In this document: piece after piece, positions 544 to 19,194 of the stretch | How positions within the stretch are numbered: position 1 is the stretch's first letter | Layout: every line of letters starts with the position of its first letter | Origin: a virus | Direction: 5' to 3' (one strand) | Length of the DNA: 64,000 bases | Virus record (IMG/VR): IMGVR_UViG_3300009506_000025 | Location: 8,808 to 72,807 of that record | The notes under the pieces: model-generated | What the model was told of the DNA's origin: nothing | Databases searched by the model: none | Seen by the model: the letters and a program-made list of their open reading frames with translations, nothing else | Position numbers and translations under genes: made by a program

Positions 544-3405
544 ATGGCTAAGAATCTCAACGGCCTTACTCTCACGGCCCCTTCCAGCGATCCCAACATC
601 CTGGTGGGCGAATCGTTCGATTGCACGCTTACTCCTTCGTTCAACGGGTCGGGAACTCCAAACCCATACACTCTACAGTGGGAGTGGAACGAGGGAGAGG
701 GGGCCTATTCGGCAATCGGTACGACGCCGACGAACGGCCTCTACCACGCCGCCACGAACCCGCTAGTCAATATCCAAGTAGACGGTCCTTCTACGCTTGT
801 AGTCTATGGTGGCACTAGCGGCATCTTTCACGTCCGCGGGAATGGAAACAGCGGCAGCTACTACACGTCGGAGCAGCAGGTAACCGTTTCCAGCGGTTCT
901 GCTACTCCGAGTTCCACGCCCTCCGCCACGCCTTCCGCGACTCCCAGCGGCACGCCTTCAGCTACACCGTCAGCCACTCCCTCTTCGACCCCCAGTGCGA
1001 CCCCTTCGGCCACTCCAAGTGCCACCCCGTCCGCCACACCTAGCACCACGCCCACTCCCAGCTCAACCCCGTCGGCGACCCCAAGTTCAACACCCTCGAC
1101 AACGCCCACTCCCTCAAGTACACCCTCCGCCACACCTAGCGCCACACCTTCCACCACCCCGACGCCGTCGAGTACGCCTTCATCTACGCCCTCCGCTACG
1201 CCGAGTACGACACCAACTCCCTCTAGCACACCGAGTGCAACGCCTTCAGCCACGCCGAGCGCAACCCCGTCTTCGACTCCTAGTGCCACCCCGAGCGCAA
1301 CCCCATCTGCAACTCCGAGCACCACGCCGACACCATCGAGTACGCCAAGTTCCACTCCATCGGCAACTCCCAGTACGACTCCGACCCCGAGTTCCACGCC
1401 GTCAGCGACGCCGAGCGCAACCCCCAGTACCACCCCGACGCCTTCTAGTACCCCGTCGGCCACCCCCTCGGCCACACCGTCGACGACCCCGACGCCTTCG
1501 AGCACTCCAAGCGCTACCCCTTCAAGCACGAGGAGTTCCACTCCAAGCTCTACCCCGAGCACTACGCCAACTCCCACAATAACCGGTACGGGGACAGTAT
1601 CAGCTACACCCTCTTCTACGCCGAGTTCCACGCCGTCGACGACCCCGACAGGCACTCCAACTATCACCCCGACCGCTACGCCATCATCCACCCCTTCATC
1701 CACTCCCAGCAATACGCCCTCCACCACCCCTACCCCGTCTTCGACCCCCAGCGCGACACCCTCAGCAACCCCCAGCGCCACTCCCTCGGCCACTCCAAGT
1801 GCCACCCCAAGCACAACCCCCACACCCAGTTCGACTCCTTCGGCCACTCCATCTTCGACGCCGTCTGCCACCCCAACCCCCAGTTCAACTCCGAGCGCCA
1901 CGCCCTCTGCGACGCCCAGTACGACGCCGACACCGAGTTCCACTCCCTCTGCCACCCCCAGCAGTACACCATCCGGTGCCGCGTTGTCCGTAGACGACAT
2001 CGTTGTCACCTGGTCAACAGCGAGTGCCACGCCGAGTTCGACTCCCTCTAGTACGCCGAGCGCTACTCCCTCTAGCACCCCCTCCGCGACCCCCAGCACT
2101 ACGCCGACGCCTTCCAGCACGCCGAGCAGCACGCCCTCCAGCACGCGCAGCTCGACTCCAAGTTCCACACCAAGTACGACCCCCACCCCGACAGTGACTG
2201 GAACGGGAACGGTATCGGCAACGCCGTCTTCTACTCCGAGTTCAACACCGTCCACTACCCCAACCGGAACCCCGACGCCGAGTAATACACCTTCGACTAC
2301 GCCAACTCCCTCTTCAACTCCCAGCTCTACGCCGTCGGCAACGCCCTCGGCAACTCCCAGCGCGACACCTTCAGCGACCCCGTCGGCTACTCCGAGCGCG
2401 ACACCTTCGACTACGCCGACACCCAGTAGCACCCCTTCCGCGACGCCATCAGCGACCCCGAGCACCACGCCAACGCCCTCCAGTACACCGTCGGCTACCC
2501 CTTCTGCGACGCCCTCCACGACACCGACCCCTAGCAGCACGCCCAGCGCCACTCCATCGGCCACCCCGTCAGGGACCCCTTCGTCGACCCCGAGTAGCAC
2601 GCCAAGTAGCACGCCGAGCAACACACCCTCGACGACCCCCACGCCTTCGAGTACCCCCAGTGCGACGCCCTCGGCCACACCCTCGACCACCCCTACTCCA
2701 TCGAGTACGCCGTCTTCCACTCCTAGTGCGACGCCTTCGACTACCCCAACGCCCTCCAGTACGCCCTCCAGCACGCGGAGTTCGACGCCCAGTTCAACTC
2801 CAAGTACAACACCTACTCCAACAATAACTGGCACCGGCACCGTATCCGCCACACCATCTTCCACTCCGAGCACGACCGGGACTCCAACCCTTACCCCGAC
2901 GGCAACTCCATCCTCGACTCCGTCCTCGACACCTAGCAATACTCCCTCGACAACACCAACGCCTTCTTCTACGCCGAGTGCTACACCCTCGGCTACTCCC
3001 TCCGGGACGCCCAGCAGCACAGCCTCTGCGACCCCGAGTAGTACGCCCAGTGCGACGCCAAGCAACACACCGTCGGCGACCCCCACTCCATCCTCAACGC
3101 CAAGCGCAACCCCGTCAGCCACTCCGAGCGCGACGCCGAGCAGCACGCCGTCTGCTACCCCAACCCCATCCAGTACACCGAGCGCGACGCCGTCGACGAC
3201 GCCAACGCCGAGCAGCACGCCCTCATCTACACCCAGCGCGACACCCAGCAGCACCCCCAGCGCTACACCCTCAACGACCCCTACCCCATCCAGCACCCCC
3301 AGCTCCACTCCAAGTTCTACCGGCGCCGCCGCCAGTGCGGTTCCCATTGTCGGGAGCGGAGGAATCCACTCCCTTGTCGGAGGGAGACAGGTCATAAATG
3401 GATGA
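544..3405 (+). CDS. Mucin-like Thr/Pro/Ser-rich repeat protein with an N-terminal beta-rich (Ig-like?) domain; probable virion surface fibre
   Basis: ~120-aa globular N-terminus, then ~800 aa of TPS(A/S/T) repeats. Start is either ATG 544 (GGGAG at 531-535) or ATG 475 (overlaps the upstream stop and would add a signal-like hydrophobic leader). Confidence 0.8.
898..3320 (+). repeat. Coding TPS(A/S/T) tetrapeptide repeat with highly degenerate codons
   Basis: Translation is [12 protein letters not shown]... throughout; the DNA copies differ at synonymous positions. Confidence 0.95.
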
Positions 3406-4108
3406 TCTGACTGTGATCTACATCACCGATAGCGTGCTGGACCCCACGATAGCCCACGGGTGCAGGAAAATACTAGCCAGGGCCGCTGGAGATCACCGAA
3501 TCATAAGCGTATCGCAGGACTTCCTGGAATTTGGGGACAACCTCTGCGTGGGCCGGATCGGACGTTCGGTGTTATCGATGGAACAGCAGATCGAAGCAGG
3601 ACTGGAAGCGGCCACCTCACGGTGGGTTGCGATCGCCGAACACGATTGCATCTACTCAGAGGAACATTTTCGTTTTCGGCCACCAGACGACCGGTTATTC
3701 TGGTACAACAGAAACGTCTGGATCTTGAGGACAGACATCCAACGGTTCTCCTACAGGGAGCGCAAGATTCAATCTCAGATGGTCTGCGACAGGAAGCTAC
3801 TCCTATCGGCGACAAGGATGAAGCTGGAGGTGGTAGCCAATCCGGGCTGGGAAAAGATGCGTCCCATGGGAGAGCCGGGAGCGGCTGGGTACTACAGGTC
3901 GCGCCAAAGGTGTAGAGGGGAGGAGCTGAAGCGAATTGTCGGAGAGTACGCTCTGCGATTTAGCTCGCAGCCATTTGGGACCGCAGTACCCAATGTGGAT
4001 ATTTGGCACGGAGGCAATCTTAGGGGCAGGCGAACCGGACTAAATGGGCGCTATCGATTGGAACCTTGGGGAGAATACGCAGATATATGGAAGACATTCA
4101 GAAGCTAA
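3398..4108 (+). CDS. GT-A-like glycosyltransferase (EHD motif), paralog of 6596-7321
   Basis: IIYxT-like start, [18 protein letters not shown] (vs CEHDVLYHPSHF), [10 protein letters not shown]. Confidence 0.55.
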
Positions 4109-4668
4109 TCCATCGCAGGTTCAAGATAAAGAAGCGCAGCGACAATGTCGTGCGAGGTGCTCGCGGAGATAGAGTAACCCTCGCGGCCCTATGGGGAGAG
4201 GTCGGCCTGAATCGAGGGGTGGAGGTCGGCGTATGCAGGGGGACGTTCTCCAAGATTCTCTGCCTCAACAATCCAAACATAGAGCTGTACTCGATTGATC
4301 CGTGGTTCACCGGAGGGCGGGTTGGGCATCGCCGCGAGAGACATATGCGGAGAGCCATAAAGAAGCTGGCTCCATTTGCAGTCACCATCATCCGCAAGAC
4401 CAGTATGGAGGCACTAGCCGACTTCGAGGACGGTAGCCTCGATTTCGCATTCATCGACGGAAACCACACGTTCGACTACGTAGCCCCGGATATCATCTTC
4501 TGGTCAAAGAAGGTACGTAGCGGGGGAATGATCGGGGTCCATGACTACCACCGGCACCGCTGGGGTGGCGTGATCGAAGCCGTGAACGCCTACACGTTCT
4601 GCCACAACATCAACCCCTGGTACGTCACTTGGGAGGCCACGCCCACGGCGTTTTGGGTCAAGCCATGA
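4087..4668 (+). CDS. Class I SAM methyltransferase (Methyltransf_24-like)
   Basis: GVEVGVCRG, SIDPW, LDFAFIDGNH, GGMIGVHDY. Confidence 0.85.
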   Translation: MEDIQKLIHRRFKIKKRSDNVVRGARGDRVTLAALWGEVGLNRGVEVGVCRGTFSKILCLNNPNIELYSIDPWFTGGRVGHRRERHMRRAIKKLAPFAVTIIRKTSMEALADFEDGSLDFAFIDGNHTFDYVAPDIIFWSKKVRSGGMIGVHDYHRHRWGGVIEAVNAYTFCHNINPWYVTWEATPTAFWVKP

Positions 4669-5357
4669 AGCTCTCGATCATCATCCCGGTCCTCAACAGC
4701 CACGAGATCGTCCGGAGGCAGATGGTGCATTACTCCGCGATGCCTCTTCCTCCAGACGTGGAGGTGATCCTGGTGGACGATGGGAGTGATCCGCCTATCC
4801 CCCAATCCATGGATCGATACATCAACATCCTCCGAACGCACGATACCCGCCCCTGGACCCAGCCCAAGGCCAGGAACATTGGCGCCCGTGCGGCCTGCGG
4901 CGAGTTCCTGCTGTTCACGGACATCGACCACATCGTACCGGAAGACAGCGTGAAGTGGTGCATGGATTGTCAATACGATTTTTCCAAGTTCCGACGCTAC
5001 CTGGGCGTCCTGGACGAGTTCGGCAGGATCACCCAGGATCGACAGGTGCTGGAGCAATACGGGGTCGACAGGAAGAAAGGGCTCCGCGTCTCTTGCCATA
5101 CCCTCAGCATGGTTGTCCGCCGGGACCTGTTCTGGGAGACGGGGGGATACCGAGAGAAACTCGGCAAGCATCCAACCCACGATGATGGACATATGAAGAA
5201 GATGCTGGGGCGTCGAGTTCGTAGAGGGGAAATCACTCGCTGTCCCGACGGACACGGGGAGGACGAGCGTCCAGTGATCTACGTCTTCCCAAACGGGAGG
5301 TTTGGCGGCAGCGAAAACCATAATCCCATGGGCCTGTTCCACAGCTTGCAGCGATGA
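4665..5357 (+). CDS. GT2-family glycosyltransferase
   Basis: LSIIIPVLN, ILVDDGSD, ARNIGA, FTDID. Confidence 0.85.
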   Translation: MKLSIIIPVLNSHEIVRRQMVHYSAMPLPPDVEVILVDDGSDPPIPQSMDRYINILRTHDTRPWTQPKARNIGARAACGEFLLFTDIDHIVPEDSVKWCMDCQYDFSKFRRYLGVLDEFGRITQDRQVLEQYGVDRKKGLRVSCHTLSMVVRRDLFWETGGYREKLGKHPTHDDGHMKKMLGRRVRRGEITRCPDGHGEDERPVIYVFPNGRFGGSENHNPMGLFHSLQR

Positions 5358-5956
5358 AGATACTACCCCCAGCCAGCTATGCCGCATACCGCGCCGGCCA
5401 GCGGAAAAAGTACCGCAAAAAGCGGAACCACGTCTGGATCAATCGTCGAGAGTGGGACTTTCTGGCTGCTACGATTCGCGAATGTGCCAAAGAGCTACGC
5501 CAGGGGATCTGCCACGGCGTCCGGAAGGGGATCGAGTGCGACAGGCTATCGGAACTCCTGGAGATCCCCGTGATCGGGACGGAGATCGGGAACCCTCACT
5601 GGCACAGGGTAGTAGCGAATTGGGATTTTCATAAGACAAAGCCTGAGTGGAACGAGCAGTTTTCGTTTGTGTACTCCAACGCCCTGGACCACTCCTACGA
5701 CCCGAGCCTGGCCCTGGCGACCTGGGCCACGCAGCTTCACGTCGGCGGGATCATGGTCCTGCACTGGGCGACGGATGATTTGGAGCCCAGCAGCCCGGAG
5801 GACTGCTTCGGCGCGACCCTGGAGGAGTACGCAGAATTGGTAGGTGTGCATTGTAGCGAGGTGCGGCTTATACCCTCTCCCGTCAAAAGGGGAAACAGGA
5901 CCCTTGTCGTTGGAACGCGCAATGAGACTCTCCATCGTGACCCCCGTGTTGGATAG
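5354..5956 (+). CDS. Methyltransferase-like protein
   Basis: ICHGVRKG, GTEIG, FSFVYSNALDHSYDP, GGIMVL (degenerate class I MTase pattern). Confidence 0.55.
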   Translation: MKILPPASYAAYRAGQRKKYRKKRNHVWINRREWDFLAATIRECAKELRQGICHGVRKGIECDRLSELLEIPVIGTEIGNPHWHRVVANWDFHKTKPEWNEQFSFVYSNALDHSYDPSLALATWATQLHVGGIMVLHWATDDLEPSSPEDCFGATLEEYAELVGVHCSEVRLIPSPVKRGNRTLVVGTRNETLHRDPRVG

Positions 5957-6599
5957 CCACGAGATCGTCCGTAGGCAGTTGCTCCACTACAATCGGATGG
6001 ATCTGCCGGACTCCGTGGAAATCCTCTTCATGGACGATGGGAGCGATCCGCCGCTGGAAGGGAACGGGCGGGTTACGGTTCACCGGACGAACGACACGCG
6101 CAAATGGACGGAGCACATTGCCCGCAACAAGGGGGCACAACTAGCCCGCGGCGAATACCTGCTGATGATCGACGTCGACTACATCGTACCCGAGCAGACC
6201 ATCCTCCGGGCCATCGCCTTCGACGGGGATCGCATGGACTTCGATAGGAGATTTGGGGTTCTCGATAGGGAGGGGAAGGTCGATACCAGCATCCAAACTC
6301 TTGCCGTGTGGGGCCTGCTTCCGAAGTGGCAACGCAGGCGGACCCCCAACCACCGAAGTCAGTACCTAATGCGAAAGTCGCTGTTTGAGAAGATCGGCGG
6401 TTATCGCGAGGATCGCTGGGGTAAGGCTCACCCGAAGGGAGGCGGGGCGGGGCAGAAGTTCTTCCTGAATTGGCGGAGACAGGAGATCCCACTGCCGGAG
6501 GAACGGCCCATCGTCTACATGTTTCCCAACGGGAAGTATTGCGGAGATCTGGACTACAACCCGTTTGGATACTTTCACAAGCTGACACGCAAAGCATGA
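5922..6599 (+). CDS. GT2-family glycosyltransferase, paralog of 4665-5357
   Basis: LSIVTPVLDSHEIVRRQ, MDDGSD, ARNKGA, IDVD; shares the C-terminal NPxGxFHxL. Confidence 0.85.
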   Translation: MRLSIVTPVLDSHEIVRRQLLHYNRMDLPDSVEILFMDDGSDPPLEGNGRVTVHRTNDTRKWTEHIARNKGAQLARGEYLLMIDVDYIVPEQTILRAIAFDGDRMDFDRRFGVLDREGKVDTSIQTLAVWGLLPKWQRRRTPNHRSQYLMRKSLFEKIGGYREDRWGKAHPKGGGAGQKFFLNWRRQEIPLPEERPIVYMFPNGKYCGDLDYNPFGYFHKLTRKA

Positions 6600-7321
6600 C
6601 CGGAGGCATCGTCTACTACACGCACAACCGGGGTGACCCCATGATCCTCGCTGCCTGCCGCAGGCAGATCGACCGAGCAAGAGGAGAGATTCCTGTGGTA
6701 GCTGTATCGCAGAATCCGCTGGATTGGGGCGATCAGAATATCGTGATGAAGGGGATTGGGAGGACGGACCTGGCCATGTTCCGCCAGCAACTCGCGGGGC
6801 TGGAGGCCGTCGGAACCGACTACGTGTTTTTCTGCGAGCACGACGTACTCTACCACCCGAGCCACTTTACCTTTGTTCCCCCCACAGATGACAAATACTA
6901 CTTCAACTGGAACGTCTGGGCCGTGGATGCTGACACGGGCCAAGCGCTTCACTACGACGGGATGCGGATGACCTCGGGGGTCGTGGCCTATCGCGATATC
7001 CTGATCGAGCACTACAGGAAGAAGATCGAGATAACGAGGAGGCGAGGAAAGTTCTCCCGGCAGCTCCTTGGATATGAGCCCGGTAAGCCGAAGTCCCGGG
7101 AGATGCTGGGGAACTACAGGCAGGGGAAGTTCTACTCCACACTGCCCAACATCGACATCAAGCACGACCGCAACATTACCCGGAAGCGATTCGCCCCAAG
7201 CGATTACCGGAACTGGACGCACATAATGGACTCGTGGACCCTGGCCGATTCCGTTCCCTACTGGGGAACGACCAAGGGTAGGTTCAGGGAATTCCTGGCA
7301 GAGGTGGCGAATGGTAATTGA
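6596..7321 (+). CDS. GT-A-like glycosyltransferase (EHD motif)
   Basis: GIVYYT, VAVSQ, FFCEHDVLY, PNIDIKHDRN; ATGA-coupled. Confidence 0.55.
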   Translation: MTGGIVYYTHNRGDPMILAACRRQIDRARGEIPVVAVSQNPLDWGDQNIVMKGIGRTDLAMFRQQLAGLEAVGTDYVFFCEHDVLYHPSHFTFVPPTDDKYYFNWNVWAVDADTGQALHYDGMRMTSGVVAYRDILIEHYRKKIEITRRRGKFSRQLLGYEPGKPKSREMLGNYRQGKFYSTLPNIDIKHDRNITRKRFAPSDYRNWTHIMDSWTLADSVPYWGTTKGRFREFLAEVANGN

Positions 7322-8126
7322 CTGCTTTCCGTTCTTCAACGAACTGGACCTGCTGGAGATCCGCCTCCACGAGCTGGCTCCCGTGGTGGACGTGTTCGTT
7401 CTCTCCGAGGCGACGCTGACGTTCACCGGGAAGCCAAAGCCCCTCTACTACCACGACAACCGGAGTCGCTTCAGGGAGTTCTCTGATCGCATCCACCACC
7501 TGGTCGTCTCCGATTACACGGGGATGAAGCTCAATGACACCCGCTCCATGGACCGGGAGCAGAAGCAACGGGGGCTGGACTGGATGGTGGAACGCTTCAA
7601 GCCGGGCTTGCAGGATCTCGTGATCATGGCCGACGTGGACGAGATTCCCAGGGCCAGCACGATTGCCCAGGCCGAGAAGGAGACGGGGTGGATTGCGGCG
7701 ATGATTGAGATGCAGTTGTACTACTACTACATGAACTGCCGCGCCAAGGGGCGACCGGGGTCGTGGAGAAACCCCCGCCTGCTTCGCGTAAACAGGGGAG
7801 AGAGGATTCACTACAACAGCACCCGGAAGGGGTGGCGAGACAAGGACTACTGGGACGCTGGGTGGCACTTCAGCTTTCTCCACGGGTCCGTCGCCGACAT
7901 CCAGTACAAGGTCTCCTCGTACACCCACGCGCCGGAGTTCGACAACGACCATTACATGGCGCCTGAGCATATCAGCGACTGTATCGAACAGGGGAGGGAT
8001 ATCTTCCGCAGGAAGAGATACCAGTTTGAGTACCTCGATGACTTGGGATTTCTGCCCGAGTACGTGCAGAACCATCTCGATAGGTTTGCCAAGTACATTC
8101 ACCAGCCATGCGAGACCTTAGCGTAA
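7311..8126 (+). CDS. GT17 (MGAT3-like beta-1,4-GlcNAc transferase) family glycosyltransferase
   Basis: IDCFPFFNELDLLEIRLHEL, EATLTFTGKPKPL, DVDEIP, AGWHFSF. Confidence 0.9.
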   Translation: MVIDCFPFFNELDLLEIRLHELAPVVDVFVLSEATLTFTGKPKPLYYHDNRSRFREFSDRIHHLVVSDYTGMKLNDTRSMDREQKQRGLDWMVERFKPGLQDLVIMADVDEIPRASTIAQAEKETGWIAAMIEMQLYYYYMNCRAKGRPGSWRNPRLLRVNRGERIHYNSTRKGWRDKDYWDAGWHFSFLHGSVADIQYKVSSYTHAPEFDNDHYMAPEHISDCIEQGRDIFRRKRYQFEYLDDLGFLPEYVQNHLDRFAKYIHQPCETLA

Positions 8127-9037
8127 TCATCCCCGCCCGCAACGAGATGTTCCTGAACAGAACGGTCCAGGATGTCCTCGACCATGCGCGGGCCGATACC
8201 GAGGTGATCGTAGTCCTCGATGGCTACTGGCCTGATCCACCGTTGCCGGACAACGACCGGGTGATCGTACTCCACCACACCACGGCGATCGGACAGAGGG
8301 CCGCCACCAACCAGGGGGCCAGGGTCTCGCAGGCGAAGTACGTGATGAAGCTCGACGCCCACTGCTCGCTGGACGAGGGCTTCGACGTGAAGCTCATGGA
8401 GGACTGCCAGCCGGACTGGACGATGATCCCGAGCATGTATAACTTCCACGCCTTTGATTGGAGATGTGTGGCCTGCGGGAACCAGACCTATCAAGGATTC
8501 AAGCCGTCGCTGTGCTCCAAGTGCAAGGCAACCGAGTTCGAGATGGTGGTGACCTGGGAGCCCCGCTGGAACCGAAAGACGGTCTCCTGGCGGTTCGACA
8601 AGAACATGCAGTTCCAGTATTGGCGGAAACACTGCAAGAGGGCCGAGGTCAAGGGCGACCTGATCGAGACGATGTGCTTCATCGGGGCCTGCATGTTGAT
8701 GGAGAGGAAAAGGTTCTGGGACCTCGGGGGGATGGACGAGGCTCACGGAAGCTGGGGCCAGTTCGGCACGGAGATCTCCTGCAAGTCCTGGCTCTCCGGG
8801 GGAAAGCTGATCACGAGCCAGAAGACCTGGTTTGCCCACCTCTTCCGCACCGGGAACTTCAGCCACAATGGCCATTCTACGTTTCCCTACCCGCTGAGCC
8901 AGCAGGCCATTGATCGGGCCAGGGCATACTCCAAGGACCTCTGGCTGAACGACAAGTGGCCCGGAGCGATATTGCCGCTTTCCTGGCTAGTTGATAGATT
9001 TAAGCCAGTTCCCGATTGGCATGAGGGGGCGAGATGA
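8108..9037 (+). CDS. GT-A glycosyltransferase resembling polypeptide GalNAc-transferase (GT27-like), with a Zn-ribbon insertion
   Basis: LSVIIPARNE; LDAHC (DxH); GACMLMERKRFWDLGGMDEAHGSWGQFGTEISCKSWLSGG..FAHLFR; insertion CVAC..CSKC. Confidence 0.75.
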   Translation: MRDLSVIIPARNEMFLNRTVQDVLDHARADTEVIVVLDGYWPDPPLPDNDRVIVLHHTTAIGQRAATNQGARVSQAKYVMKLDAHCSLDEGFDVKLMEDCQPDWTMIPSMYNFHAFDWRCVACGNQTYQGFKPSLCSKCKATEFEMVVTWEPRWNRKTVSWRFDKNMQFQYWRKHCKRAEVKGDLIETMCFIGACMLMERKRFWDLGGMDEAHGSWGQFGTEISCKSWLSGGKLITSQKTWFAHLFRTGNFSHNGHSTFPYPLSQQAIDRARAYSKDLWLNDKWPGAILPLSWLVDRFKPVPDWHEGAR

Positions 9038-9869: not shown

Positions 9870-9870
9870 G

Positions 9871-10101: not shown

Positions 10102-10114
10102 AAAGGAGAGCGAG

Positions 10115-10573: not shown

Positions 10574-10605
10574 GAACGGACACCCTCGGCTGAGGCTCGG
10601 ATGCC

Positions 10606-11448
10606 ATGCTAAGCCACTCGATCATCATCCCGCACCGGGACTACTCCAAGTACCTAGAGATGTGCCTCTGGTCGATCCGGTGCTCCGCGCACTGCTGCGA
10701 CGTCGATGACTACGAGGTCCTGGTAGTAGACCAGGGCTCGAAGCTGCCCCCGACCCTCTACGATCCGCACGATCGCTTGATCAAGCAGCCCCGCGCGCCA
10801 GCCTATAGGTACATCCGCTACTTCAACAAGCCGATGGCACTGAACGAGGGGATCAGGCAGGCCAAGGGCGAGATCCTGACCTTCCTCGACGCGGACGCGA
10901 TCGTTGGCGAACTCTGGATGGATTGCGTGAGCTGGTTGAAGGGAGAGAATGACCGTAACGCCATGACAAAACTTTGCTACCGCGTCCGCTATCTCCCCGA
11001 GACCGCATTGATTCGGATGGCGGCCCTGGAGCCGGACGCTAGGGAGAAGATGGTCTACGGTGAACGGGGCTTCTTTGACTGCTACCGAGACTTCCAGCGG
11101 GCGGTGGAGTGCTACGGGGAGCCCGACAAGGACCCGCACAACAATCCTCCAGGCAGGAAGTGGGACGGGGATGAGCCACCGGAGCATCCGATCTTCGGGA
11201 ACTCGCAGTTTTCGATCCATCGCGACCAGCTCGGGAAGATCCGGTTCGACGAGAAGTACGTCGGCCGCGGGTTCGAGGACATCGCCATGAACCGGGAGAT
11301 CTGGAGACGGAAGGGGGACAACTACCGAGCGGGGATCGTGCTCGATTCAAGGCACGCGATGTTCCACGTCCGCAACCCCAGCCAGGGGGAGAAGTGGGGG
11401 GCAGGCAAGCAGAACACCGCCAATCTCAGGAGGTACAACAAGACATGA
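10606..11448 (+). CDS. GT2 glycosyltransferase with a GT7-C-like motif
   Basis: SIIIPHRD, VVDQGS, FNKPMALNEG, FLDAD, FDEKYVGRGFED. Confidence 0.85.
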   Translation: MLSHSIIIPHRDYSKYLEMCLWSIRCSAHCCDVDDYEVLVVDQGSKLPPTLYDPHDRLIKQPRAPAYRYIRYFNKPMALNEGIRQAKGEILTFLDADAIVGELWMDCVSWLKGENDRNAMTKLCYRVRYLPETALIRMAALEPDAREKMVYGERGFFDCYRDFQRAVECYGEPDKDPHNNPPGRKWDGDEPPEHPIFGNSQFSIHRDQLGKIRFDEKYVGRGFEDIAMNREIWRRKGDNYRAGIVLDSRHAMFHVRNPSQGEKWGAGKQNTANLRRYNKT

Positions 11449-12446
11449 GAGTCCTGGTTGCGGGGGCTGGAGGGTTCATCGGGGGGCACTTGGCCAGGGC
11501 GCTGGTCAAGGCTGGGCATGAAGTCCACGCCGTCGACATCAAGCCCTACGAGGAATGGTGGCAAGGGGCGGGGGCCGGAGGTCCCGCTTCCCTGTTCTTC
11601 TCGACTAACATTGCCTGCGAGAGAGAGGCAACATACCACTGCACAGGGATGGATTGGGTCTTCAATCTGGCCTGCGATATGGGGGGGATCGAGTTTATCG
11701 AGGGAAACAAGGCCCGCTGCATGGACTCGGTTCTGATCAACGCCAACCTGCTACGGGCTGCCAGGAAGAACAGGGTTAAGCGATACCTCTACACCTCCTC
11801 GGCCTGCGTCTACCGGGCGGATCGGCAGGACGGCCCGGATCAGCCGCCGCTGAAGGAGGAGGATGCTTACCCGGCGATGCCCGAGGATGGCTATGGCTGG
11901 GAGAAACTCTTTTCGGAGCGACACTGCCGGCACTACATGGAGGACTACGGCCTGGACTGCCGCGTGGTCCGGCTGCACAACGTATACGGCCCCCACGGGT
12001 CCTGGTGCGATGGACGCGAGAAGGCCCCGGCGGCGATTTGCCGCAAGGTGGCCGAGGCGAGGCTCCAGGGAGACGGGGAATTTATGATCTACGGGGATGG
12101 GACCCGGACCAGGACCTTCATGTGGATCGAAGACTGTGTCGAGGGGCTCCAGAGGATCATGGAGTCGGAGATCCGCCAACCGATCAACCTGGGTATCCAG
12201 GACGAGGTGGTCACGATCAACCGCCTGGTGGAACTCGTCCAAGAGGTGGCAGGAACGGACCTGGAGGTGAACCACGACCTCTCCCGGGCCCAGGGCGTCT
12301 ACGGCCGATCTAGCGACAATACCATGATTCGCAGAGAGCTAGACTGGGAGCCGAGGACCCCGTTGCTGAGCGGCCTCGCCCGTACCTATCCCTGGATCGA
12401 GGACCAAGTGAGGAAGCGAGAATGCTTGAGTACCCCCACTCGCTGA
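11445..12446 (+). CDS. NAD-dependent epimerase, GDP-mannose 3',5'-epimerase-like
   Basis: GAGGFIG, NLACDMGG, SSACVY, PEDGYGWEKL (YxxxK), REKAPAAICRKV, TRTFMWIEDC. Confidence 0.9.
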   Translation: MRVLVAGAGGFIGGHLARALVKAGHEVHAVDIKPYEEWWQGAGAGGPASLFFSTNIACEREATYHCTGMDWVFNLACDMGGIEFIEGNKARCMDSVLINANLLRAARKNRVKRYLYTSSACVYRADRQDGPDQPPLKEEDAYPAMPEDGYGWEKLFSERHCRHYMEDYGLDCRVVRLHNVYGPHGSWCDGREKAPAAICRKVAEARLQGDGEFMIYGDGTRTRTFMWIEDCVEGLQRIMESEIRQPINLGIQDEVVTINRLVELVQEVAGTDLEVNHDLSRAQGVYGRSSDNTMIRRELDWEPRTPLLSGLARTYPWIEDQVRKRECLSTPTR

Positions 12447-13069
12447 CAGCGGAGGAGATCCGGGACCTCGTGGGCGTGGCCCCCCTGATGCTGGAGATCG
12501 GCTGCCACGACGGCTCGGACACGGCGAAGTTTCTCAGGGCGATGCCCGAGGCGATCATCCACTGCTTCGAGCCCTACGAGAACCCGAGGCGGAGATTCCG
12601 TGAGAGCGTCGGGACCTCCAAGCGGGTCCGTCTCTATCCGGTGGCGGTCTGTGACATCGATGGTCAAGTTGAGTTCTACGCCTCGACCGGCGCCGCCGGT
12701 GGCCGGGAGGACTGGGACTACTCCGGGAGCATCAACCGGCCGACGGGCCACCTCAAGCGGTCCCCGGAGATCGCCTTCAAGCCCCCGATCACGGTCGAAG
12801 GGATGCGACTGGACACCTGGTTCGAGGAGCACTCGCTGCCGAAGATCGACTTCATCTGGGCCGATGTCCAGGGTGCCCAACGGAAGGTGATCGAGGGTGG
12901 ACAGCGAGCCCTACTGGCGACCCGGTATCTCTATATCGAGAGGCACCGATGGCCGTTGTACCAGGACGAGCCCACCCCGGACGAGCTGCTCAGACTCCTA
13001 CCGGGATTCAACCCCCTGGCGGAGTACGCCCGAGAGAACGTACTCCTGGAAAACAGGTACGCCAAGTGA
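12422..13069 (+). CDS. FkbM-family O-methyltransferase (NoeI-like)
   Basis: LEIGCHDGSDT, CFEP, WDYSGSI, RLDTW, IDFIWADVQGA. Confidence 0.85.
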   Translation: MLEYPHSLTAEEIRDLVGVAPLMLEIGCHDGSDTAKFLRAMPEAIIHCFEPYENPRRRFRESVGTSKRVRLYPVAVCDIDGQVEFYASTGAAGGREDWDYSGSINRPTGHLKRSPEIAFKPPITVEGMRLDTWFEEHSLPKIDFIWADVQGAQRKVIEGGQRALLATRYLYIERHRWPLYQDEPTPDELLRLLPGFNPLAEYARENVLLENRYAK

Positions 13070-13965
13070 GCTGCGAGTTTCACAGAGCGGCGGATACGCT
13101 GCGGAAGATCAACAGCCTGGGCGTGGCCGGACGCGCGAAGGATGCCTCGGACAGCATCAAGGTGATCGACTCCCTGCTCTCGACCTACAACCAGGCGAAG
13201 TCAGCTAACCACCTGGCAAAGTTTCAACCGGCGATGGACGGGTTCCTAGCAGCCACACGCAAGTCGATGACGGAACTCGTCTACGCGGTGGAACAGATGG
13301 CCGAGATCGTCGGTCCCCAAAACTTCAACGCCTCGCCCCCGGCGTTGGAGTCGATGGCCGCCATGCGTAGCCGCAACTTCCCGGAGGCACCCCAGGTGGG
13401 CGCCCTGCACGGGGAGGATGCGATTATAAGGGATCTGCTTCCGGAGTCGGTCGGCCACTACGTCGACATCGGGGCCTGGCGCCCAGTAGAGCAGTCGAAC
13501 ACCTGGGCCCTCTACCAGCGGGGATGGAGGGGGCTGTTGATCGAACCGGTCCCCCAGGCTTGGGGCGCTATTTTGCATCAGCGACCAGGGGATTTTCTGG
13601 CGCCCTGGGCAGTGAGCGACACCGCAGGACCGACCCGCATGTGGGTCAACGGCCCCCTGAGCACGATCCGGCCGGACAAGGCCCTGGCGGAGTCGAGTGA
13701 GATCGTGGTGCAAGGGCTTCCCTTGAATCAGATCTTGAAATTCTTTCCCACCATCCGTGATCAGTGCCTGATGTGCAGCATCGACGTCGAAGGCGCTGAA
13801 GAGGCGATCCTGAAATCTACCGACTGGAAGAAGTTCTCGCCCAGGATTCTAGTGGTGGAGTTCATCCACGGAAACCAAGACTCCATCAAGGCGATCCTGA
13901 CCGCAGCGGGTTACCGGAAGCAGGCCGACACCCGCAACAACCTGATCTTCAGCCGGAAGGAATAG
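13066..13965 (+). CDS. FkbM-family methyltransferase with an N-terminal helical extension
   Basis: YVDIGAWRPVEQSNT, GWRGLLIEP, SIDVEGAE. Confidence 0.85.
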   Translation: MSCEFHRAADTLRKINSLGVAGRAKDASDSIKVIDSLLSTYNQAKSANHLAKFQPAMDGFLAATRKSMTELVYAVEQMAEIVGPQNFNASPPALESMAAMRSRNFPEAPQVGALHGEDAIIRDLLPESVGHYVDIGAWRPVEQSNTWALYQRGWRGLLIEPVPQAWGAILHQRPGDFLAPWAVSDTAGPTRMWVNGPLSTIRPDKALAESSEIVVQGLPLNQILKFFPTIRDQCLMCSIDVEGAEEAILKSTDWKKFSPRILVVEFIHGNQDSIKAILTAAGYRKQADTRNNLIFSRKE

Positions 13966-13968
13966 CTG

Positions 13969-14727
13969 GTGAGTACGATCCGCTGGCGAGAGATCGAATG
14001 GTGGTACGTCAACCTCTCCACCCGCCCCGACCGCCGGGAGCACGCCGAGGAGCAATTCGCCCGCCATGGCCTCCAGGCCCGGCGCTTCGAGGCGTACACA
14101 CCGGACCAGTGGAATGGGCCCGGCGCGGACGTCGCCATGATGCGTCCGACTCCCGGGGCGATCGGTTGCTTTATGTCCCAACGCGAGGTCACACGAACTG
14201 TGGAGGGGACAGATAGGGTGGTGGCCGTCTGCGAGGACGACGTGCTGTTCTGCGACGATCTCTGCGATCGCCTCCAGTACATCGAGGAGAACTTCCATAA
14301 ACCCTGGGACGTCTTCTGGCTGGGATCGACCTACCACGTCAACCCGCCAGTCTGGCACACCAAGGATCTGGGAAGGGATTTCTGCCAGACAGACGTGAAA
14401 CATATCCACCGGGCCTACGGGCTCTGGGGGACCTACGCCTACCTGGTCAACGGCCGTAGTGTCTCCAGGATCATGGAACTCTTCCAGCGGGACCTGCCAA
14501 AGGCCCGGGGGATCGACGATCTCTACATCATGCTGGAGCCGGAGATCAACAGCTACTGCTTCACCCCCGGGATGGCGTTTCAGATCGACGGGAAGACGAA
14601 CATCGGCGTAGGGGGAGACGGGATGACCATCTTCTCGAACTTCCACAAGCTGGGGCCCTATGTCTTCACGAAGCGGCTGGAGGATTTCGACTACGACTCG
14701 TTCAATTGGGCGGAGGGGAAGCGATGA
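13969..14727 (+). CDS. GT25-family glycosyltransferase
   Basis: YVNLSTRPDRREH, GAIGCFMSQ, VCEDDV, GTYAYLVN. Confidence 0.85.
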   Translation: MSTIRWREIEWWYVNLSTRPDRREHAEEQFARHGLQARRFEAYTPDQWNGPGADVAMMRPTPGAIGCFMSQREVTRTVEGTDRVVAVCEDDVLFCDDLCDRLQYIEENFHKPWDVFWLGSTYHVNPPVWHTKDLGRDFCQTDVKHIHRAYGLWGTYAYLVNGRSVSRIMELFQRDLPKARGIDDLYIMLEPEINSYCFTPGMAFQIDGKTNIGVGGDGMTIFSNFHKLGPYVFTKRLEDFDYDSFNWAEGKR

Positions 14728-15485
14728 GCGAACTCACCGAGAAGGAATTTCACGATCAGGTCGAGGACACCTACCGGAGGATGTACCTTGAGCCCGATGC
14801 GCCCGCCCCATCGATGACGGCCGCGGAGTACCGCGGGCTCTACGGCGAGGTGGTGACCAACGACTGCTACGGACTGGGGGCGATAGAGTTTCAGCCCGAG
14901 GTGATCTTCGATCTAGGGGCGAACGTGGGGGTGTTTACCAACTTTGCACGCCGGCTTTTTCCCGAGGCAACGATCATAGCCGTCGAGCCCGACGAGCAGA
15001 ACATGCAGAACATGAGCTACCTGGCAACGGATCACAGCCAGACGGTGTTCATGGAGTACGCAATCGGACTTGGTCTGGTCTATTCTGCCGGAAGCCTAGC
15101 GAACGGAGCCCACCGTTCCTATATCTGCGATGGATCAGAGTACCTCCGACCATTTACCCAGGAGGGCGGGCGGTACAAGCTCTCCGATGTTCCTGCAATC
15201 ACCCTCTCCGCACTGATGGACCTTTTTCCGATCCAGCCGCGTTTCATCAAGGTGGATATTGAAGGAGGGGAGGCGGCGATTTTCGAGCACGAGAAATCGA
15301 TGCTGGCGCTCGCCGAAACGGAGGCATTTGCAATAGAGCTACACGATCGGTGGTGGGCGACCAGACTACAATCGCTGCTATCTGAGACCCACTCTGCCGA
15401 GTGGGAGCCTCGGACCTGCGTGCTGAAGGCAAGGAAGAGATCGCCGGCGACACCCCCATCGCGAGGAAGACCAACTCAGGAGTAA
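14724..15485 (+). CDS. FkbM-family methyltransferase
   Basis: FDLGANVG, IAVEP, IKVDIEGGE. Confidence 0.85.
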   Translation: MSELTEKEFHDQVEDTYRRMYLEPDAPAPSMTAAEYRGLYGEVVTNDCYGLGAIEFQPEVIFDLGANVGVFTNFARRLFPEATIIAVEPDEQNMQNMSYLATDHSQTVFMEYAIGLGLVYSAGSLANGAHRSYICDGSEYLRPFTQEGGRYKLSDVPAITLSALMDLFPIQPRFIKVDIEGGEAAIFEHEKSMLALAETEAFAIELHDRWWATRLQSLLSETHSAEWEPRTCVLKARKRSPATPPSRGRPTQE

Positions 15486-15488
15486 CCC

Positions 15489-16034
15489 GTGGAAAAGATC
15501 ACGAGCAGGGCACACTTCTACAAGCTCCTCGACAGACCGGAGTTGAAGCAGGCGGCGGCGGAGGTCGGGGTAGCTGAAGGCAGGTATTCCCGCGAGATCC
15601 TTTCGTGGGGAATAGGTAAGCTCTACCTTGTAGACCTGTGGGAGGAGATCGGGGGGATGAAGGGGTGCCCAAGCACCGGGCAACACCAGCAGAACTACGA
15701 CTCCTGCCTCCGTATCGTCGAACAATTTCCTGGTCGGGTGATCCTCCTGAAGGGATGGTCCTGGGAGCAGGCCAAGAATGTTCCCGACAATTCGCTGGGC
15801 CTGGTCCATCTCGACGCGCACCACTACTACGAGTCGGCGGTCAAAGACCTGGCGGCATGGTGGCCGAAGCTCCTGCCCGGGGGTGTGATGTCGGGCCATG
15901 ATTATCTGGCCCACGAGTACACGGTCAGACAGGCAGTGGACGAGTTTGCTACAGCAAGAAAGATCGAGGTCCTTGTTGATAGGCCAGACGATCCCCGCAA
16001 TGCCTCGTTCTATTTCAGAAAGCCCCCGGCATGA
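15489..16034 (+). CDS. Class I SAM methyltransferase (Methyltransf_24-like)
   Basis: AEVGVAEG, LVDLW, VHLDAHH, GGVMSGHDY. Confidence 0.85.
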   Translation: MEKITSRAHFYKLLDRPELKQAAAEVGVAEGRYSREILSWGIGKLYLVDLWEEIGGMKGCPSTGQHQQNYDSCLRIVEQFPGRVILLKGWSWEQAKNVPDNSLGLVHLDAHHYYESAVKDLAAWWPKLLPGGVMSGHDYLAHEYTVRQAVDEFATARKIEVLVDRPDDPRNASFYFRKPPA

Positions 16035-16807
16035 ACATCAAGGTCCTCACGGGCTACCAGGGCGATTGCCTCTATCGCGAGCTGACGCTGGCGAACCTTG
16101 GAGAATACTGCGCCAGGTGGGGCCACACGTTCGTATCTCGATTCGGCGACTGGATGGACGAGCGTGGCGAGATGGAGGAAACGGCCCGGAGGTTTTTGGA
16201 GAGATCCGGAGGAAGGATCTCGGAAGAGGAATACGCCATCCGTCCAGAGCACGCGACCCGCAAGATGACCCTTACCTGGGCCAAGCATCTACTGATCCGG
16301 GAGGAACTAGGCGGCTGCGACTGGCTCCTGTGGCTGGACGCCGACTGCAAGATTATGGATATGCGGGTGTCCCTGGATTCGCTGATAGACAGCGACCACG
16401 ATCTTGTCCTTTCTGGAATGTTTCCCGAGTGCTGGGCGGCCAATACCAAGGCAGTGATGTGCAAGGAAGCGCCAGAGGGGCACGGGGTCGTCTCGCTTGG
16501 GATCATGTTGATGAGGAACTGTACCTGGACTTGGGATCTTCTGGACGCCTGGTGGGCGTCGCGCAACAAGGACTGGGCGAGAGAGAAACCCTACGAGTGC
16601 ATGTACCATGGAGACAATCAGTGGTTCTCGTGCCATTTCATGCTCAAGGCCCCCGGCCGGGATCGAGTAAAGGTCGTGCCCAAGGAGACGATGGGTTGGT
16701 GCCACCACAAGCCAGACCTCCAGCAGTTCATAATCCACCTCTACGGGAGCATCGAGGTGAATCGGCTGGCCATGCTCCGGGACTTGGAACGCTTTGTGAA
16801 ACGATAG
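16031..16807 (+). CDS. GT34 (GMA12/MNN10-like) glycosyltransferase
   Basis: NLGEYCARWGH, WAKHLLI, DWLLWLDAD, GIMLMRN, FIIHLYG. Confidence 0.75.
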   Translation: MNIKVLTGYQGDCLYRELTLANLGEYCARWGHTFVSRFGDWMDERGEMEETARRFLERSGGRISEEEYAIRPEHATRKMTLTWAKHLLIREELGGCDWLLWLDADCKIMDMRVSLDSLIDSDHDLVLSGMFPECWAANTKAVMCKEAPEGHGVVSLGIMLMRNCTWTWDLLDAWWASRNKDWAREKPYECMYHGDNQWFSCHFMLKAPGRDRVKVVPKETMGWCHHKPDLQQFIIHLYGSIEVNRLAMLRDLERFVKR

Positions 16808-16817
16808 GTGGATCATA

Positions 16818-17480
16818 GTGGACGTCAGATTCACGAACATCACGCCCGTAGAGCCGCTGGTCCGAAACCCCGATAGCATCTCGGATGGGGAGAAGACAGT
16901 TATCGTCGTGGGTCTCGGCCGGGGAGGGACATCCGTCGTTGCGGCGGTGCTGGATGCCTTGGGGGTCTACATGGGACCGCGGGAGGAGCTGAGTACACAA
17001 GGGGCATTTGAGTCCGCCGTGTTCATCCATGGAACCCGCCAGGATCGCGAGGCGGAGATCGCCAGACTCAATGAATTGCATTCCATCTGGGGCTGGAAAT
17101 GGCCCTATGGCGCTGATTTGCTTAGCGATATGTATGCCGGAGTGAGGAACCTCCATCCGATCTTTGTCTTCCGGGATGTCGTCGCCCTAATGCAGTCCTA
17201 CGCGGTCCACGCCAACGAGTCGGTGGACGAAGTTGCCGAGAACCTTTGGGGGAGGTACTGCAATCTTTACGAGGCGGCGATGGGGACGGAACTCCCGGCA
17301 CTACTGGTCAGTTTCGAGCGGGTGAAGATGCGCCCGGTGGATTTCGTCCACAGCGTAGCAGACTTCCTGCGTCTTGAGATCACTAGTTCCCAAGTTTCGG
17401 AGGCAGCGTCCCGGGTCAGTTTCCGTGGAGGATACCTGATCATGCCGGACGAGTACACGGATCGGAGGAAGGCCAAATGA
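16818..17480 (+). CDS. Sulfotransferase-family protein
   Basis: IVVGLGRGGTS (PAPS loop), WGWKWP, FVFRD, LVSFE. Confidence 0.75.
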   Translation: MDVRFTNITPVEPLVRNPDSISDGEKTVIVVGLGRGGTSVVAAVLDALGVYMGPREELSTQGAFESAVFIHGTRQDREAEIARLNELHSIWGWKWPYGADLLSDMYAGVRNLHPIFVFRDVVALMQSYAVHANESVDEVAENLWGRYCNLYEAAMGTELPALLVSFERVKMRPVDFVHSVADFLRLEITSSQVSEAASRVSFRGGYLIMPDEYTDRRKAK

Positions 17481-18265
17481 GCTTTAGCTTTGCAGTGACG
17501 GCCTACAATGAACTGTCCGAGGAGGGACGGCACGGCGACTTCATCCTCCGCTGCATCCGTCCCGCCCAGGAGCACCCCGCGATCGATGAGATCGTGGTGG
17601 TGGACGACAGCCCGTCAGACGAGGGCCTCGGCGCGTTCCTCGATGGTCAGGCGAAGGTTCAGTTCTTCCGCAACCCCCAGAACCTCGGGGTCTTCGGCAA
17701 CAAGCTCGAAGCGGTGGCCCGCTGCCGGGGGGACTGGGTGATCAACTGTGACTCTGACAACTTCATGGACCGGGCCTATCTGGACAGCGTCATAGCCCAC
17801 GCGCAGCTCGGTGACACCTGGATCTCGGCCAGCTTCGCCAGGCCAGAGTTCGATTATCGGGGTCTCACGGGACTCTGGTCACGCGAGAACCTCCGAGAAT
17901 TGCTCAGCCGTCCCCGGGCGGGATGCCTCCTGAACACCGGCAACCAGACAGTCTACCGTCCGGCCTTCATGGAACTCTTCGAGCGGGTGCGTGGTCTCCG
18001 GCCCGACCTGCTGATGCCCAACTGGCTCAATATCCCCGATGACCAGCGGCCAGCCCACCACTGGAGATTGGTCTTCGACGCCCTGGATTCCACAATCTAC
18101 AACATGATCTGGCTGCGGGCCGGTAATCGAATCCGGGTGGTCGAGGGGTTGGAGTACGATCACCACTACTCCTCCGGCGCCGACTCCAACTACTCCCGCG
18201 CCCCCCGGGACAAGGACCGGCTCTCGGACGTCCTGCTACGCGAACTAGAACAGCTTGCAAGATGA
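17477..18265 (+). CDS. GT2 glycosyltransferase
   Basis: FAVTAYN, IVVVDDS, NPQNLGVFGNK, CDSDN. Confidence 0.8.
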   Translation: MSFSFAVTAYNELSEEGRHGDFILRCIRPAQEHPAIDEIVVVDDSPSDEGLGAFLDGQAKVQFFRNPQNLGVFGNKLEAVARCRGDWVINCDSDNFMDRAYLDSVIAHAQLGDTWISASFARPEFDYRGLTGLWSRENLRELLSRPRAGCLLNTGNQTVYRPAFMELFERVRGLRPDLLMPNWLNIPDDQRPAHHWRLVFDALDSTIYNMIWLRAGNRIRVVEGLEYDHHYSSGADSNYSRAPRDKDRLSDVLLRELEQLAR

Positions 18266-19194
18266 ACACGATCACGATGCGGGAATTTGGCAAGTGGGGG
18301 CGCTGGGGAAACCAGCTCTTTCAGTACGCCTTTCTGAAGATCTATGCGAGTAAGTGGGGATGTGAACTCCAGCTGCCTCCCTGGGTAGGCAACGTGCTAC
18401 TGGCAGCGAACGATCCACCGATCACCGTGGCGCTACCGCAGACGAGAGAGACCACCGACAAGCTGGAACAGGGGCAGCCACCCAACGGTGCCGAGCTGGT
18501 CGGCAGGGACTACCAGGGCTACGCCCAGTTCCACACGGGGTACTATCGGCCACACGAGGAGCGAATCCGAAACGACCTTTGGCTCCCCTCGCCCCAGCTC
18601 AGGGGCAGGATGCGTCCGGCCATGGAGAAGCTCTGGGGCATGGGCAAGTCCAGGATCGGAATCCATCTCCGCCGCGGCGACTTCGGACGGCTCTGCTTCT
18701 ACGTCACCCCGGTCGACTGGTATCTCCGGTGGTTAGACGAGCATTGGAAGCGGTTTGAGGAGCCCGTGCTTTTCATCGCCACGGAGACTCCAGATCTCGT
18801 AAGGGAGTTCTCCGACTATCACCCCGTCACAACGACCGACCTCGGGATAGATCTCACTGGAGGACCGATGGAACACTACCAGTACCTCCGCCCCGACCTG
18901 CGGATGCGCGAGCCATGGCAGATGGATTTCTTCCCAGACTGGTGTATGCTGGCGTCCTGCGATGTGGTCCTGGCGCCGAATAGCACGTTCTCGTTCACCG
19001 CAGCGATGGCCGGCGACCCTCCGGAATTCTGGAGATCCTCGCTGCCTGCGGGCGCCTTCGTACAGGAAGACGTCTGGGACACCTTCCCCTTTCAGCACGT
19101 TAGGGCCGAGGACTATTGCCATATCCCCGGGGTCTGTCTGGACGAGACGGAATACTGGGTGCGGCTGCCCGATGGGAGGTTCAGGGAGAAATGA
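18262..19194 (+). CDS. GT11 alpha-1,2-fucosyltransferase-like protein
   Basis: GRWGNQLFQYA, GYAQ, GIHLRRGD, NSTFSF. Confidence 0.88.
   Translation: MNTITMREFGKWGRWGNQLFQYAFLKIYASKWGCELQLPPWVGNVLLAANDPPITVALPQTRETTDKLEQGQPPNGAELVGRDYQGYAQFHTGYYRPHEERIRNDLWLPSPQLRGRMRPAMEKLWGMGKSRIGIHLRRGDFGRLCFYVTPVDWYLRWLDEHWKRFEEPVLFIATETPDLVREFSDYHPVTTTDLGIDLTGGPMEHYQYLRPDLRMREPWQMDFFPDWCMLASCDVVLAPNSTFSFTAAMAGDPPEFWRSSLPAGAFVQEDVWDTFPFQHVRAEDYCHIPGVCLDETEYWVRLPDGRFREK

Follow-up and report, generated by a model that had tools for sequence, protein, structure and literature searches.

The polypeptide N-acetylgalactosaminyltransferases (ppGalNAc-Ts) of glycosyltransferase (GT) family GT27, the mucin-initiating enzymes of animals, are to our knowledge regarded as a eukaryotic invention, and we know of very few cases in which the virion proteins of a phage are glycosylated. 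The serine-rich-repeat adhesins of Gram-positive cocci are glycosylated by GtfA/GtfB and then by Gtf3, dGT1/GalT1 and GlyE; the hydroxyproline of Skp1 is modified in the cytoplasm by Gnt1 of family GT60, followed by PgtA and AgtA, a pathway employing a soluble GT-A enzyme of the GT27/GT60 lineage; and giant viruses encode their own machinery for glycosylating virion fibrils. The present analysis concerns a 64,000-nucleotide stretch of phage DNA (the window, to which all coordinates refer), corresponding to bases 8808–72807 of the 72,807-bp IMG/VR record IMGVR_UViG_3300009506_000025, and in particular the open reading frame (ORF) P0001 at 8108..9037 on the + strand, which encodes a 309-aa soluble GT27-like GT-A glycosyltransferase identified from both its sequence and its predicted fold. 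With moderate confidence, P0001 is proposed to be the initiating cytoplasmic protein O-glycosyltransferase of a fibre-like protein with [ST]PSx repeats encoded nearby at 544..3405 (+), the products of neighbouring genes extending and methylating the resultant glycan. A survey of the literature, with subscription journals and supplements outside its scope, turned up neither a phage GT27-like enzyme nor a module for the glycosylation of [ST]PS repeats.

On this reading the phage pathway would resemble that of the adhesins in the sequential cytoplasmic O-glycosylation of long Ser-rich repeats, in the location of genes for soluble enzymes beside that of their substrate, and in the occurrence of bifunctional fusions. 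It would differ in that the adhesin primer is a GT4 pair of GT-B fold, whereas the candidate primer here is a GT27-like GT-A enzyme, and also in the repeat motif and in being encoded by a phage. The acceptors of the two other systems are a single hydroxyproline in Skp1 and the fibril proteins of giant viruses, both unlike [ST]-P-S-x arrays. Mycobacteriophage glycosyltransferases, as far as the relevant sections of PMC12619734 (citing Freeman et al. 2023) describe them, decorate structural proteins of the phage itself, the glycans being attached where capsid and tail-tube subunits have their C-termini, whereas the presumed acceptors considered here are fibre-like and have arrays that run to hundreds of residues.

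The P0001 frame shares 19 nt with the GT17-like gene before it and 4 nt with the ORF after it. Its start at 8108 is supported by the conserved strand LSVIIPARNE, which stands 5′ of the alternative Met14, the residue at which one gene call elsewhere begins. The first-pass annotation had described the product as a ppGalNAc-transferase-like enzyme with a zinc (Zn) ribbon insertion, and the strings that it quoted, LDAHC (within KLDAHC), GACMLMERKRFWDLGGMDEAHGSWGQFGTEISCKSWLSGG, AHLFR and CVACGNQTYQGFKPSLCSKC, were all located in the translation. The first of these contains the DxH motif (D83/H85), AHLFR supplies the third His (H244) together with F246 and R247, and CVACGNQTYQGFKPSLCSKC includes the ribbon cysteines C120, C123, C136 and C139 in the arrangement CVAC-x12-CSKC (CxxC-x12-CxxC); further key residues are D38, F169/Y171/W172 and the degenerate Gal/GalNAc-T motif W216-G-Q-F-G-T-E222. 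Across 116 family domains drawn from 80 related IMG/VR loci, D38, D83, H85 and G193 were each conserved in 116/116, H244 in 115/116 and E222 in 114/116. Pfam assigned P0001 a single domain, PF00535 (Glycos_transf_2; residues 5–98, E 6.9e-13, 49.3 bits against a gathering cut-off of 23.3). The lack of a ricin lectin domain, also asserted beforehand, is borne out both by that result and by a chain that terminates ~60 residues beyond the catalytic His, and a maximum Kyte–Doolittle 19-residue mean of 1.06 agrees with the accompanying assertion that there is no transmembrane anchor. Lectin domains were equally absent from all 12 fused relatives scanned with Pfam, which carried instead methyltransferase domains or the domain of a second GT-A family, designated UNK.

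The nearest solved relatives of P0001 are the GT27 polypeptide GalNAc-transferases only. When all PDB chains were searched with phmmer, the top match was human GalNAc-T2 (E 6.9e-8, over stretches 5–109 and 163–249), and ppGalNAc-Ts accounted for 16 of the 18 matches at E<=1. A 40-row family profile gave 21 PDB matches at E<=0.01, headed by GalNAc-T1 (E 1.4e-14); 16 were GT27 enzymes, and these alone covered the C-terminal half (positions 152–276), the other five (GalT1, 3bcv, 6p61 and chondroitin synthase twice) being restricted to the generic nucleotide-binding part (2–94). The AlphaFold2 (AF2) model of P0001 was of high confidence (pLDDT 92.1, pTM 0.91), with only the flexible loop 252–257 below 50, and its comparison with the PDB by Foldseek gave, among the matches listed (ranks 1–47), 31 rows that were without exception GT27 enzymes. 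They came from human, mouse, fly and Toxoplasma, and 4d0z_F ranked first (E 9.3e-17, TMq 0.67). In the ESM Atlas the three nearest clusters were of phage origin, and the next six structural rows were eukaryotic ppGalNAc-T clusters (five with TM 0.77, one with 0.70). The first-pass annotation had proposed that a structural grouping with ordinary polysaccharide GT2 enzymes would speak against its assignment; sequence, profile and predicted fold all placed P0001 with GT27 instead. The GT7 beta4-galactosyltransferases were considered as a nearer family and rejected, since neither the 31 Foldseek rows listed nor the 21 matches of the profile included one, and GT60 enzymes did not turn up in any of the searches.

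The GT27 enzymes that provide the comparison (human GalNAc-T1, T2, T4, T7, T10 and T12, Drosophila PGANT9 and Toxoplasma GalNAc-T3) share with P0001 the GT-A fold, the DxH motif and the C-terminal His, as well as the Gal/GalNAc-T motif region, the F-R pair after that His, the flexible loop that follows and the next helix. The Mn2+ ligands of GalNAc-T2 are Asp224, His226 and His359, with His359 placed by alignment and its position read from the 571-residue GalNAc-T2 chains in the PDB. HMMER alignment of P0001 with that enzyme equated H244 with His359, F169 with Phe280, Y171 with Tyr284, F246 with Phe361 and R247 with Arg362. GT27 enzymes prefer acceptors with Pro at −1, +1 and +3, and the four-residue period of [ST]-P-S-x would supply such prolines for each hydroxyl; the presumed acceptors of P0001 are likewise Pro-rich Ser/Thr repeats. 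According to the relevant sections of PMC4432651, Phe361, Phe280 and Trp282 of GalNAc-T2 are key to the recognition of Pro-containing acceptor motifs, the substitutions F361A and W282A nearly abolish activity, and Val255 and Leu270 contribute to the lining of the same hydrophobic groove. With equivalents of Phe280, Tyr284 and Phe361 retained, the subtype of the family to which P0001 belongs (subtype A, below) looks, from its aligned residues, to be peptide-directed.

P0001 departs from GT27 in several respects. Unlike those enzymes, which reside in the Golgi lumen behind a type II anchor, it comes from the genome of a prokaryotic virus and would be cytoplasmic, having no membrane anchor, stem or ricin-type lectin domain; members of its family are often fused to another GT-A domain or to a sugar methyltransferase. 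At an identity of ~20% it also lacks an equivalent of Glu334 and carries a putative Zn ribbon of ~30 residues. The replacement of the WGGE glutamate had been noticed beforehand and is evident at F219, the motif keeping its Trp, first Gly and final Glu; over the 116 family domains the commonest residues at this position were E (39), Q (19), M (19) and F (16). The CVAC..CSKC insert had likewise been reported, and is a genuine all-or-none feature, the four Cys occurring as a set in 49 to 54 of the 116 domains and being gapped or replaced together in the remainder. Its two CxxC knuckles were modelled by AF2 with a pLDDT of 95–96, metal binding being a prediction; the NCBIfam rubredoxin-like domain matched the ribbon only weakly (E 0.0056; 16.2 bits, the cut-off being 45). 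In the HMMER alignment P0001 residues 110–162, ribbon included, replace residues 251–273 of GalNAc-T2, the beta-hairpin bearing Val255 and Leu270, which would put the ribbon on the rim of the acceptor groove, where it probably reshapes acceptor binding. A predicted complex of P0001 with a 45-residue stretch of the TPS array, manganese (Mn) and Zn scored 0.00 on two occasions, and the controls were themselves unfolded, with the consequence that this result counts neither way.

Nearly all members of this large family are viral. At E<=1e-3, 3323 relatives of P0001 were recovered, the best 120 of which were 63–87% identical, ~309 aa and full length, with no name beyond 'glycosyltransferase' among them. 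IMG/VR yielded at least 88 loci with relatives, of which 80 (31–68% identity) were analysed, and 185,579 species genomes yielded at least 14 full-length relatives, all in metagenome-assembled genomes (MAGs) of very different phyla. Three subtypes were distinguished among the 116 domains. Subtype A (54 domains, including P0001) has the Zn ribbon and a residue other than Glu at 219, displays the pattern F169-Y171-[WF]172 in 45 and F246-R247 in 53 of its 54 members, and in 27 instances is fused to a UNK domain. Subtype B (39 domains, eight fused to Methyltransf_24) has no ribbon, has Glu at 219, and has lost both of the acceptor-groove patterns of subtype A, G-x-W and H-K being its commonest forms. 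Subtype C (23 domains, ten of them fused to another domain, which a Pfam scan of fused forms of this type identified as CmcI methyltransferase) has neither the ribbon nor Glu at 219, and displays F/H-R. In a quick unrooted tree subtype A formed one clade (54/54, support 94) and the subtype label changed three times; being unrooted, the tree implies no polarity among the three subtypes.

By locus, the combinations recorded were A with B (27), A only (23), C only (13), C with C (4), A with C (2), A with two or three B (2) and B only (7). In four of the seven B-only loci the contig ends 0.8–2.9 kb after the GT27-like gene, and what brought in the remaining three was a P0001-like match at another position in the locus, where two of them (L041 and L075) carry the ribbon cysteines; one A or C enzyme is thus present in nearly every locus not cut short by a contig end. 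The GT27-like domain was found within a longer protein in 49 ORFs, its partners being UNK, Methyltransf_24, a rhamnosyl-O-methyltransferase/CmcI domain or a second GT27-like copy. An example is the 946-aa chain L039:4032-6869, in which two tandem GT27-like domains are followed by Methyltransf_24 in what amounts to a three-domain glycosylation enzyme.

The association of this family with [ST]PSx repeat proteins held in both directions of search. An array was scored as a same-strand open frame of at least 120 aa containing a stretch of 80 aa that was at least 60% S/T/P, within 10 kb of the GT27-like gene; by this measure arrays were present in 48 of the 80 related viral loci and in none of 19 control loci, these being relatives of window 57347-58432 (Fisher p 5.6e-7). 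Merging of loci at 90% identity left arrays in 43 of 70 clusters. The LamG-like fibre protein encoded upstream (L084:8161-9285) could not supply such controls, having no relatives among viral contigs. The repeats near GT27-like genes were almost all of one class, x-[ST]-P-S, although the N-terminal domains that precede them are diverse and fibre- or spike-like, a combination that fits an enzyme recognising the repeat itself.

Reverse searches commenced from the repeats. A generic DNA pattern for P-[ST]-x-[ST] x6 recovered mainly TPT and (TP)n linkers, and a GT27-like gene was present in three of the 80 loci, all of the SPSx type. A narrower pattern, [ST]-P-S(TCN)-x x5, again gave 80 loci, mostly with short (SP)n linkers, and recovered just 17 of the 81 known GT27-like loci; of the seven loci with at least 40 [ST]PS triplets five carried both GT27-like and UNK genes, and one of those without the GT27-like gene was just 2.7 kb long. 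The share with a GT27-like gene fell with array length, from these 5/7 to 5/14 at 20 or more triplets and 7/30 at 10 or more. Among the MAG loci a GT27-like gene accompanied 14/14 of the full-length relatives, and five of the 14 had arrays of at least 40 triplets. Taken together, the forward, reverse and MAG searches show a link with long [ST]PSx arrays specifically, rather than with every kind of S/T/P linker. IMG/VR contigs, giant-virus bins among them (loci L104–L183), also commonly have (TP)n, TPTx and (SP)n arrays of great length, with no GT27-like gene nearby.

One of the cellular occurrences is in a complete 916-kb chromosome of Candidatus Woesebacteria (L346), which encodes a GT27-like enzyme, UNK, Methyltransf_24 and a glycine-rich-domain protein with 89 [ST]PS triplets. 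The module lies among cellular genes (TatC, ComM-like, DUF1361), no phage gene being seen within 10 kb, and adjoins FnlA-like, WecB and WbcJ-like genes, neighbours which suggest a UDP-2-acetamido-2,6-dideoxy-L-hexose donor in that organism. The module may therefore also serve cell-surface proteins of bacteria of the candidate phyla radiation (CPR).

The presumed acceptor in the window is a 953-aa protein composed of an N-terminal globular domain of ~110 aa, ~820 aa of [AS]-T-P-S repeats and a C-terminal motif, and it contains 164 TPS triplets and 526 Ser plus Thr residues. Its Ser residues use all six codons (AGC 64, AGT 49, TCG 48, TCC 40, TCT 31, TCA 25) and the DNA repeats of the array match at just 69–86%, from which it follows that the peptide repeat and not the DNA is conserved, as expected of selection at the level of the protein. 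The frame is open from 406, and a start there would endow the protein with a hydrophobic stretch resembling a signal peptide (406–543); the homologous N-terminus in locus L031 (2096–2977), however, begins at the Met equivalent to 544, so the stretch is probably untranslated and a signal peptide was rejected. Long frames at 861-3395 (−) and 995-1582 (+), with GVGVVEGV and PRPP repeats, were dismissed as shadows of the TPS frame. The C-terminal motif of ~24 residues, PIV...GIHS..G.QV.NG (3330–3402), is common to five repeat proteins, the other four (in L002, L066, L028 and L030) having unrelated N-terminal domains, and may be a virion-attachment or assembly tag.

In the mechanism proposed, P0001 would act as a phage-encoded, cytoplasmic, metal-dependent GT-A enzyme with the catalytic-domain architecture of GT27. 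During infection it would transfer the first sugar from a nucleotide sugar to Ser/Thr hydroxyls in the [ST]-P-S-x arrays of the 544–3405 protein, the neighbouring soluble glycosyltransferases and sugar methyltransferases would then extend and methylate the glycan, and the product would be a mucin-like, bottle-brush virion appendage. We thus infer a protein acceptor, a priming position and a virion location for the product.

A number of observations weigh against this interpretation. Pfam did not detect PF02709 (Glyco_transf_7C), the C-terminal half of GT7/GT27, in P0001 at E<=0.01; the domain was present on 52% of the members of one neighbouring ESM Atlas cluster. Trp282 of GalNAc-T2 has no aligned partner in P0001, the HMMER alignment having a gap beside Y171/W172. 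The equivalent of Glu334 is lost in 54/54 subtype A domains and retained in subtype B, so UDP-GalNAc-type chemistry cannot be assumed; as judged from the sequences, the loss suggests a remodelled sugar pocket and, rather, a donor other than UDP-GalNAc. A tblastn search of 50,697 GenBank phage records with P0001 gave no match at E<=1e-5, and there is therefore no cultured system; as that set can be expected to include mycobacteriophages, their enzymes are probably not of the same family. At the level of the locus, 32 of the 80 had no array within 10 kb, many being short contigs, and the GT27-like gene was directly beside the array gene (<=200 nt) in just three of 36 loci, the median gap being 1.8 kb. 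In the narrower reverse search only seven of 75 loci had a GT27-like gene nearby, and most S/T/P linkers (TPT, (SP)n) had none, so repeats of this kind can go unglycosylated or be substrates of other enzymes. Lastly, UNK genes were present in 61 of the 80 loci and in all seven of the reverse-search loci with a GT27-like gene, and a UNK domain was fused C-terminally in 27 of the 54 subtype A cases; given a partner equally constant and so often fused, presence alone cannot tell which enzyme acts first.

The principal alternative is accordingly that a UNK enzyme, represented in the window by paralogues at 3398–4108 and 6596–7321, adds the first sugar to Ser/Thr, with P0001 elongating or branching the glycan in the same pathway. 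We regard this as possible, though not favoured. In addition to the constancy of UNK, its fusion to subtype A is reminiscent of bifunctional enzymes that add two successive sugars, its ExD motif is invariant, the model of the 6596–7321 product is a confident GT-A fold (pLDDT 89.8), and the sugar pocket of P0001 has lost the glutamate already described. However, the fold matches of that model (best E 5.5e-7, TMq <=0.52) were spread over many GT-A families, with no preference for one that glycosylates proteins, whereas P0001 matches the peptide-directed GT27 enzymes specifically and retains aligned equivalents of acceptor-groove aromatics. Moreover, the two or three UNK paralogues per locus are better suited to elongation than to a single priming step. 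UNK has no match in Pfam or NCBIfam, and the adhesin enzymes GalT1 (5hea) and GlyE (5gvw) were weak matches in the sequence, profile and UNK fold searches.

A second alternative supposes that the gene cluster acts on some other glycan, either a host surface polysaccharide or lipopolysaccharide during infection or lysogeny, or the phage DNA, and that the repeats serve only as flexible linkers, lying by chance in the same variable tail-fibre region. The best-known roles of phage glycosyltransferases, in the account given by the relevant part of PMC12619734, are indeed DNA glucosylation and serotype conversion. The S/T/P linkers without a GT27-like gene are common in phage and giant-virus proteins, and the serine integrase of this phage makes lysogenic conversion conceivable. 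The association with long [ST]PSx arrays is nevertheless specific in both search directions, the core enzyme has peptide-directed enzymes as its closest relatives, and the same module adjoins an SPS-array protein among the cellular genes of the complete Woesebacteria chromosome. Furthermore, the Kyte–Doolittle scan found no membrane segment in any transferase of the cluster, and Pfam reported no flippase, polymerase or polyprenyl-phosphate transferase over its 24 ORFs. On these grounds we judge this alternative improbable. That P0001 is a decayed or inactive relic whose likeness to GT27 is devoid of function, as the missing WGGE glutamate might be taken to imply, is scarcely credible in the face of the 3323 relatives and full-length close homologues, the near-invariant metal ligands, and an intact frame that overlaps both of its neighbours.

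Initiation by P0001 of a glycan on the repeat protein is also in keeping with the genomic setting. The virus record has direct terminal repeats and is rated complete, and PHROGs matches identified a major head protein, a large terminase, replication genes and a serine integrase, the last being a large serine recombinase at 41599-42555 (−); the integrase together with the terminal repeats suggests a temperate lifestyle. Tailspike- and LamG-like genes upstream of the window are followed by the fibre-like repeat protein and then by a glycan island at 3398–20377, an unbroken same-strand string of glycosyl- and methyltransferases that occupies ~17 kb, or 23% of the 72.8-kb genome. This investment is unusually large for a phage of such a size. 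By Pfam the island comprises five GT2 enzymes including P0001, GT17-like, GT25 and GT34-like enzymes, five methyltransferases (three FkbM, two Methyltransf_24) and an SDR protein, with several unnamed ORFs in addition. All of the island genes located here lie on the + strand.

The first of them encodes UNK paralogue 1 (3398..4108), which has an A-E-H-D motif, and is followed by a Methyltransf_24 (PF13578) methyltransferase (4066..4668) of the family fused to GT27-like domains in other phages, a GT2 glycosyltransferase (4629..5357) and its GT2 paralogue (5844..6599), UNK paralogue 2 (6596..7321) with the invariant ExD at E81/D83 and a generic GT-A predicted fold, and the GT17-like glycosyltransferase (PF04724, E 8.5e-41; 7311..8126) that overlaps the start of P0001. 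The remainder of the island (10606..20377), which is devoid of membrane segments, contains GT2 genes at 10606 and 17477, an SDR epimerase/dehydratase at 11394, three FkbM methyltransferases at 12422, 12949 and 14706, GT25 at 13969, Methyltransf_24/TylF at 15489, GT34-like at 16031 and, on the basis of a weak match, a sulfotransferase-like protein at 16818. Those window families that recur over the 80 related loci are the GT27-like enzyme (80), UNK (58–61), Methyltransf_24 (44–46) and the GT2 pair, one or other member of which was present in 24–25.

The family described here, of more than 3000 sequences and almost entirely viral, joins a GT27-type domain to a dedicated class of substrate and to a set of partners, namely the UNK GT-A enzymes, which merit a family description of their own, and sugar methyltransferases. 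In its broadest form, which we consider doubtful as it stands, the hypothesis would be that a large group of uncultured phages, together with some CPR bacteria, possesses mucin-type O-glycosylation of its own, in which a lectin-less GT27-like enzyme acts on [ST]-P-S-x arrays hundreds of residues long to produce methylated bottle-brush virion fibres, and that this clade comprises the closest non-eukaryotic kin, and possibly the source, of the mucin-initiating enzymes of animals. Should the favoured reading of P0001 hold, it would provide a simple soluble and lectin-free model for the reading of Pro-rich Ser/Thr repeats by GT27-type enzymes, as well as compact enzymes for the production of mucin-like glycoproteins in bacteria. 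It would also mean that the fibres of environmental phages are coated with mucin-like glycans, which would affect how such phages adsorb, resist proteases and stick, and would bear on the origin of mucin-type O-glycosylation itself.

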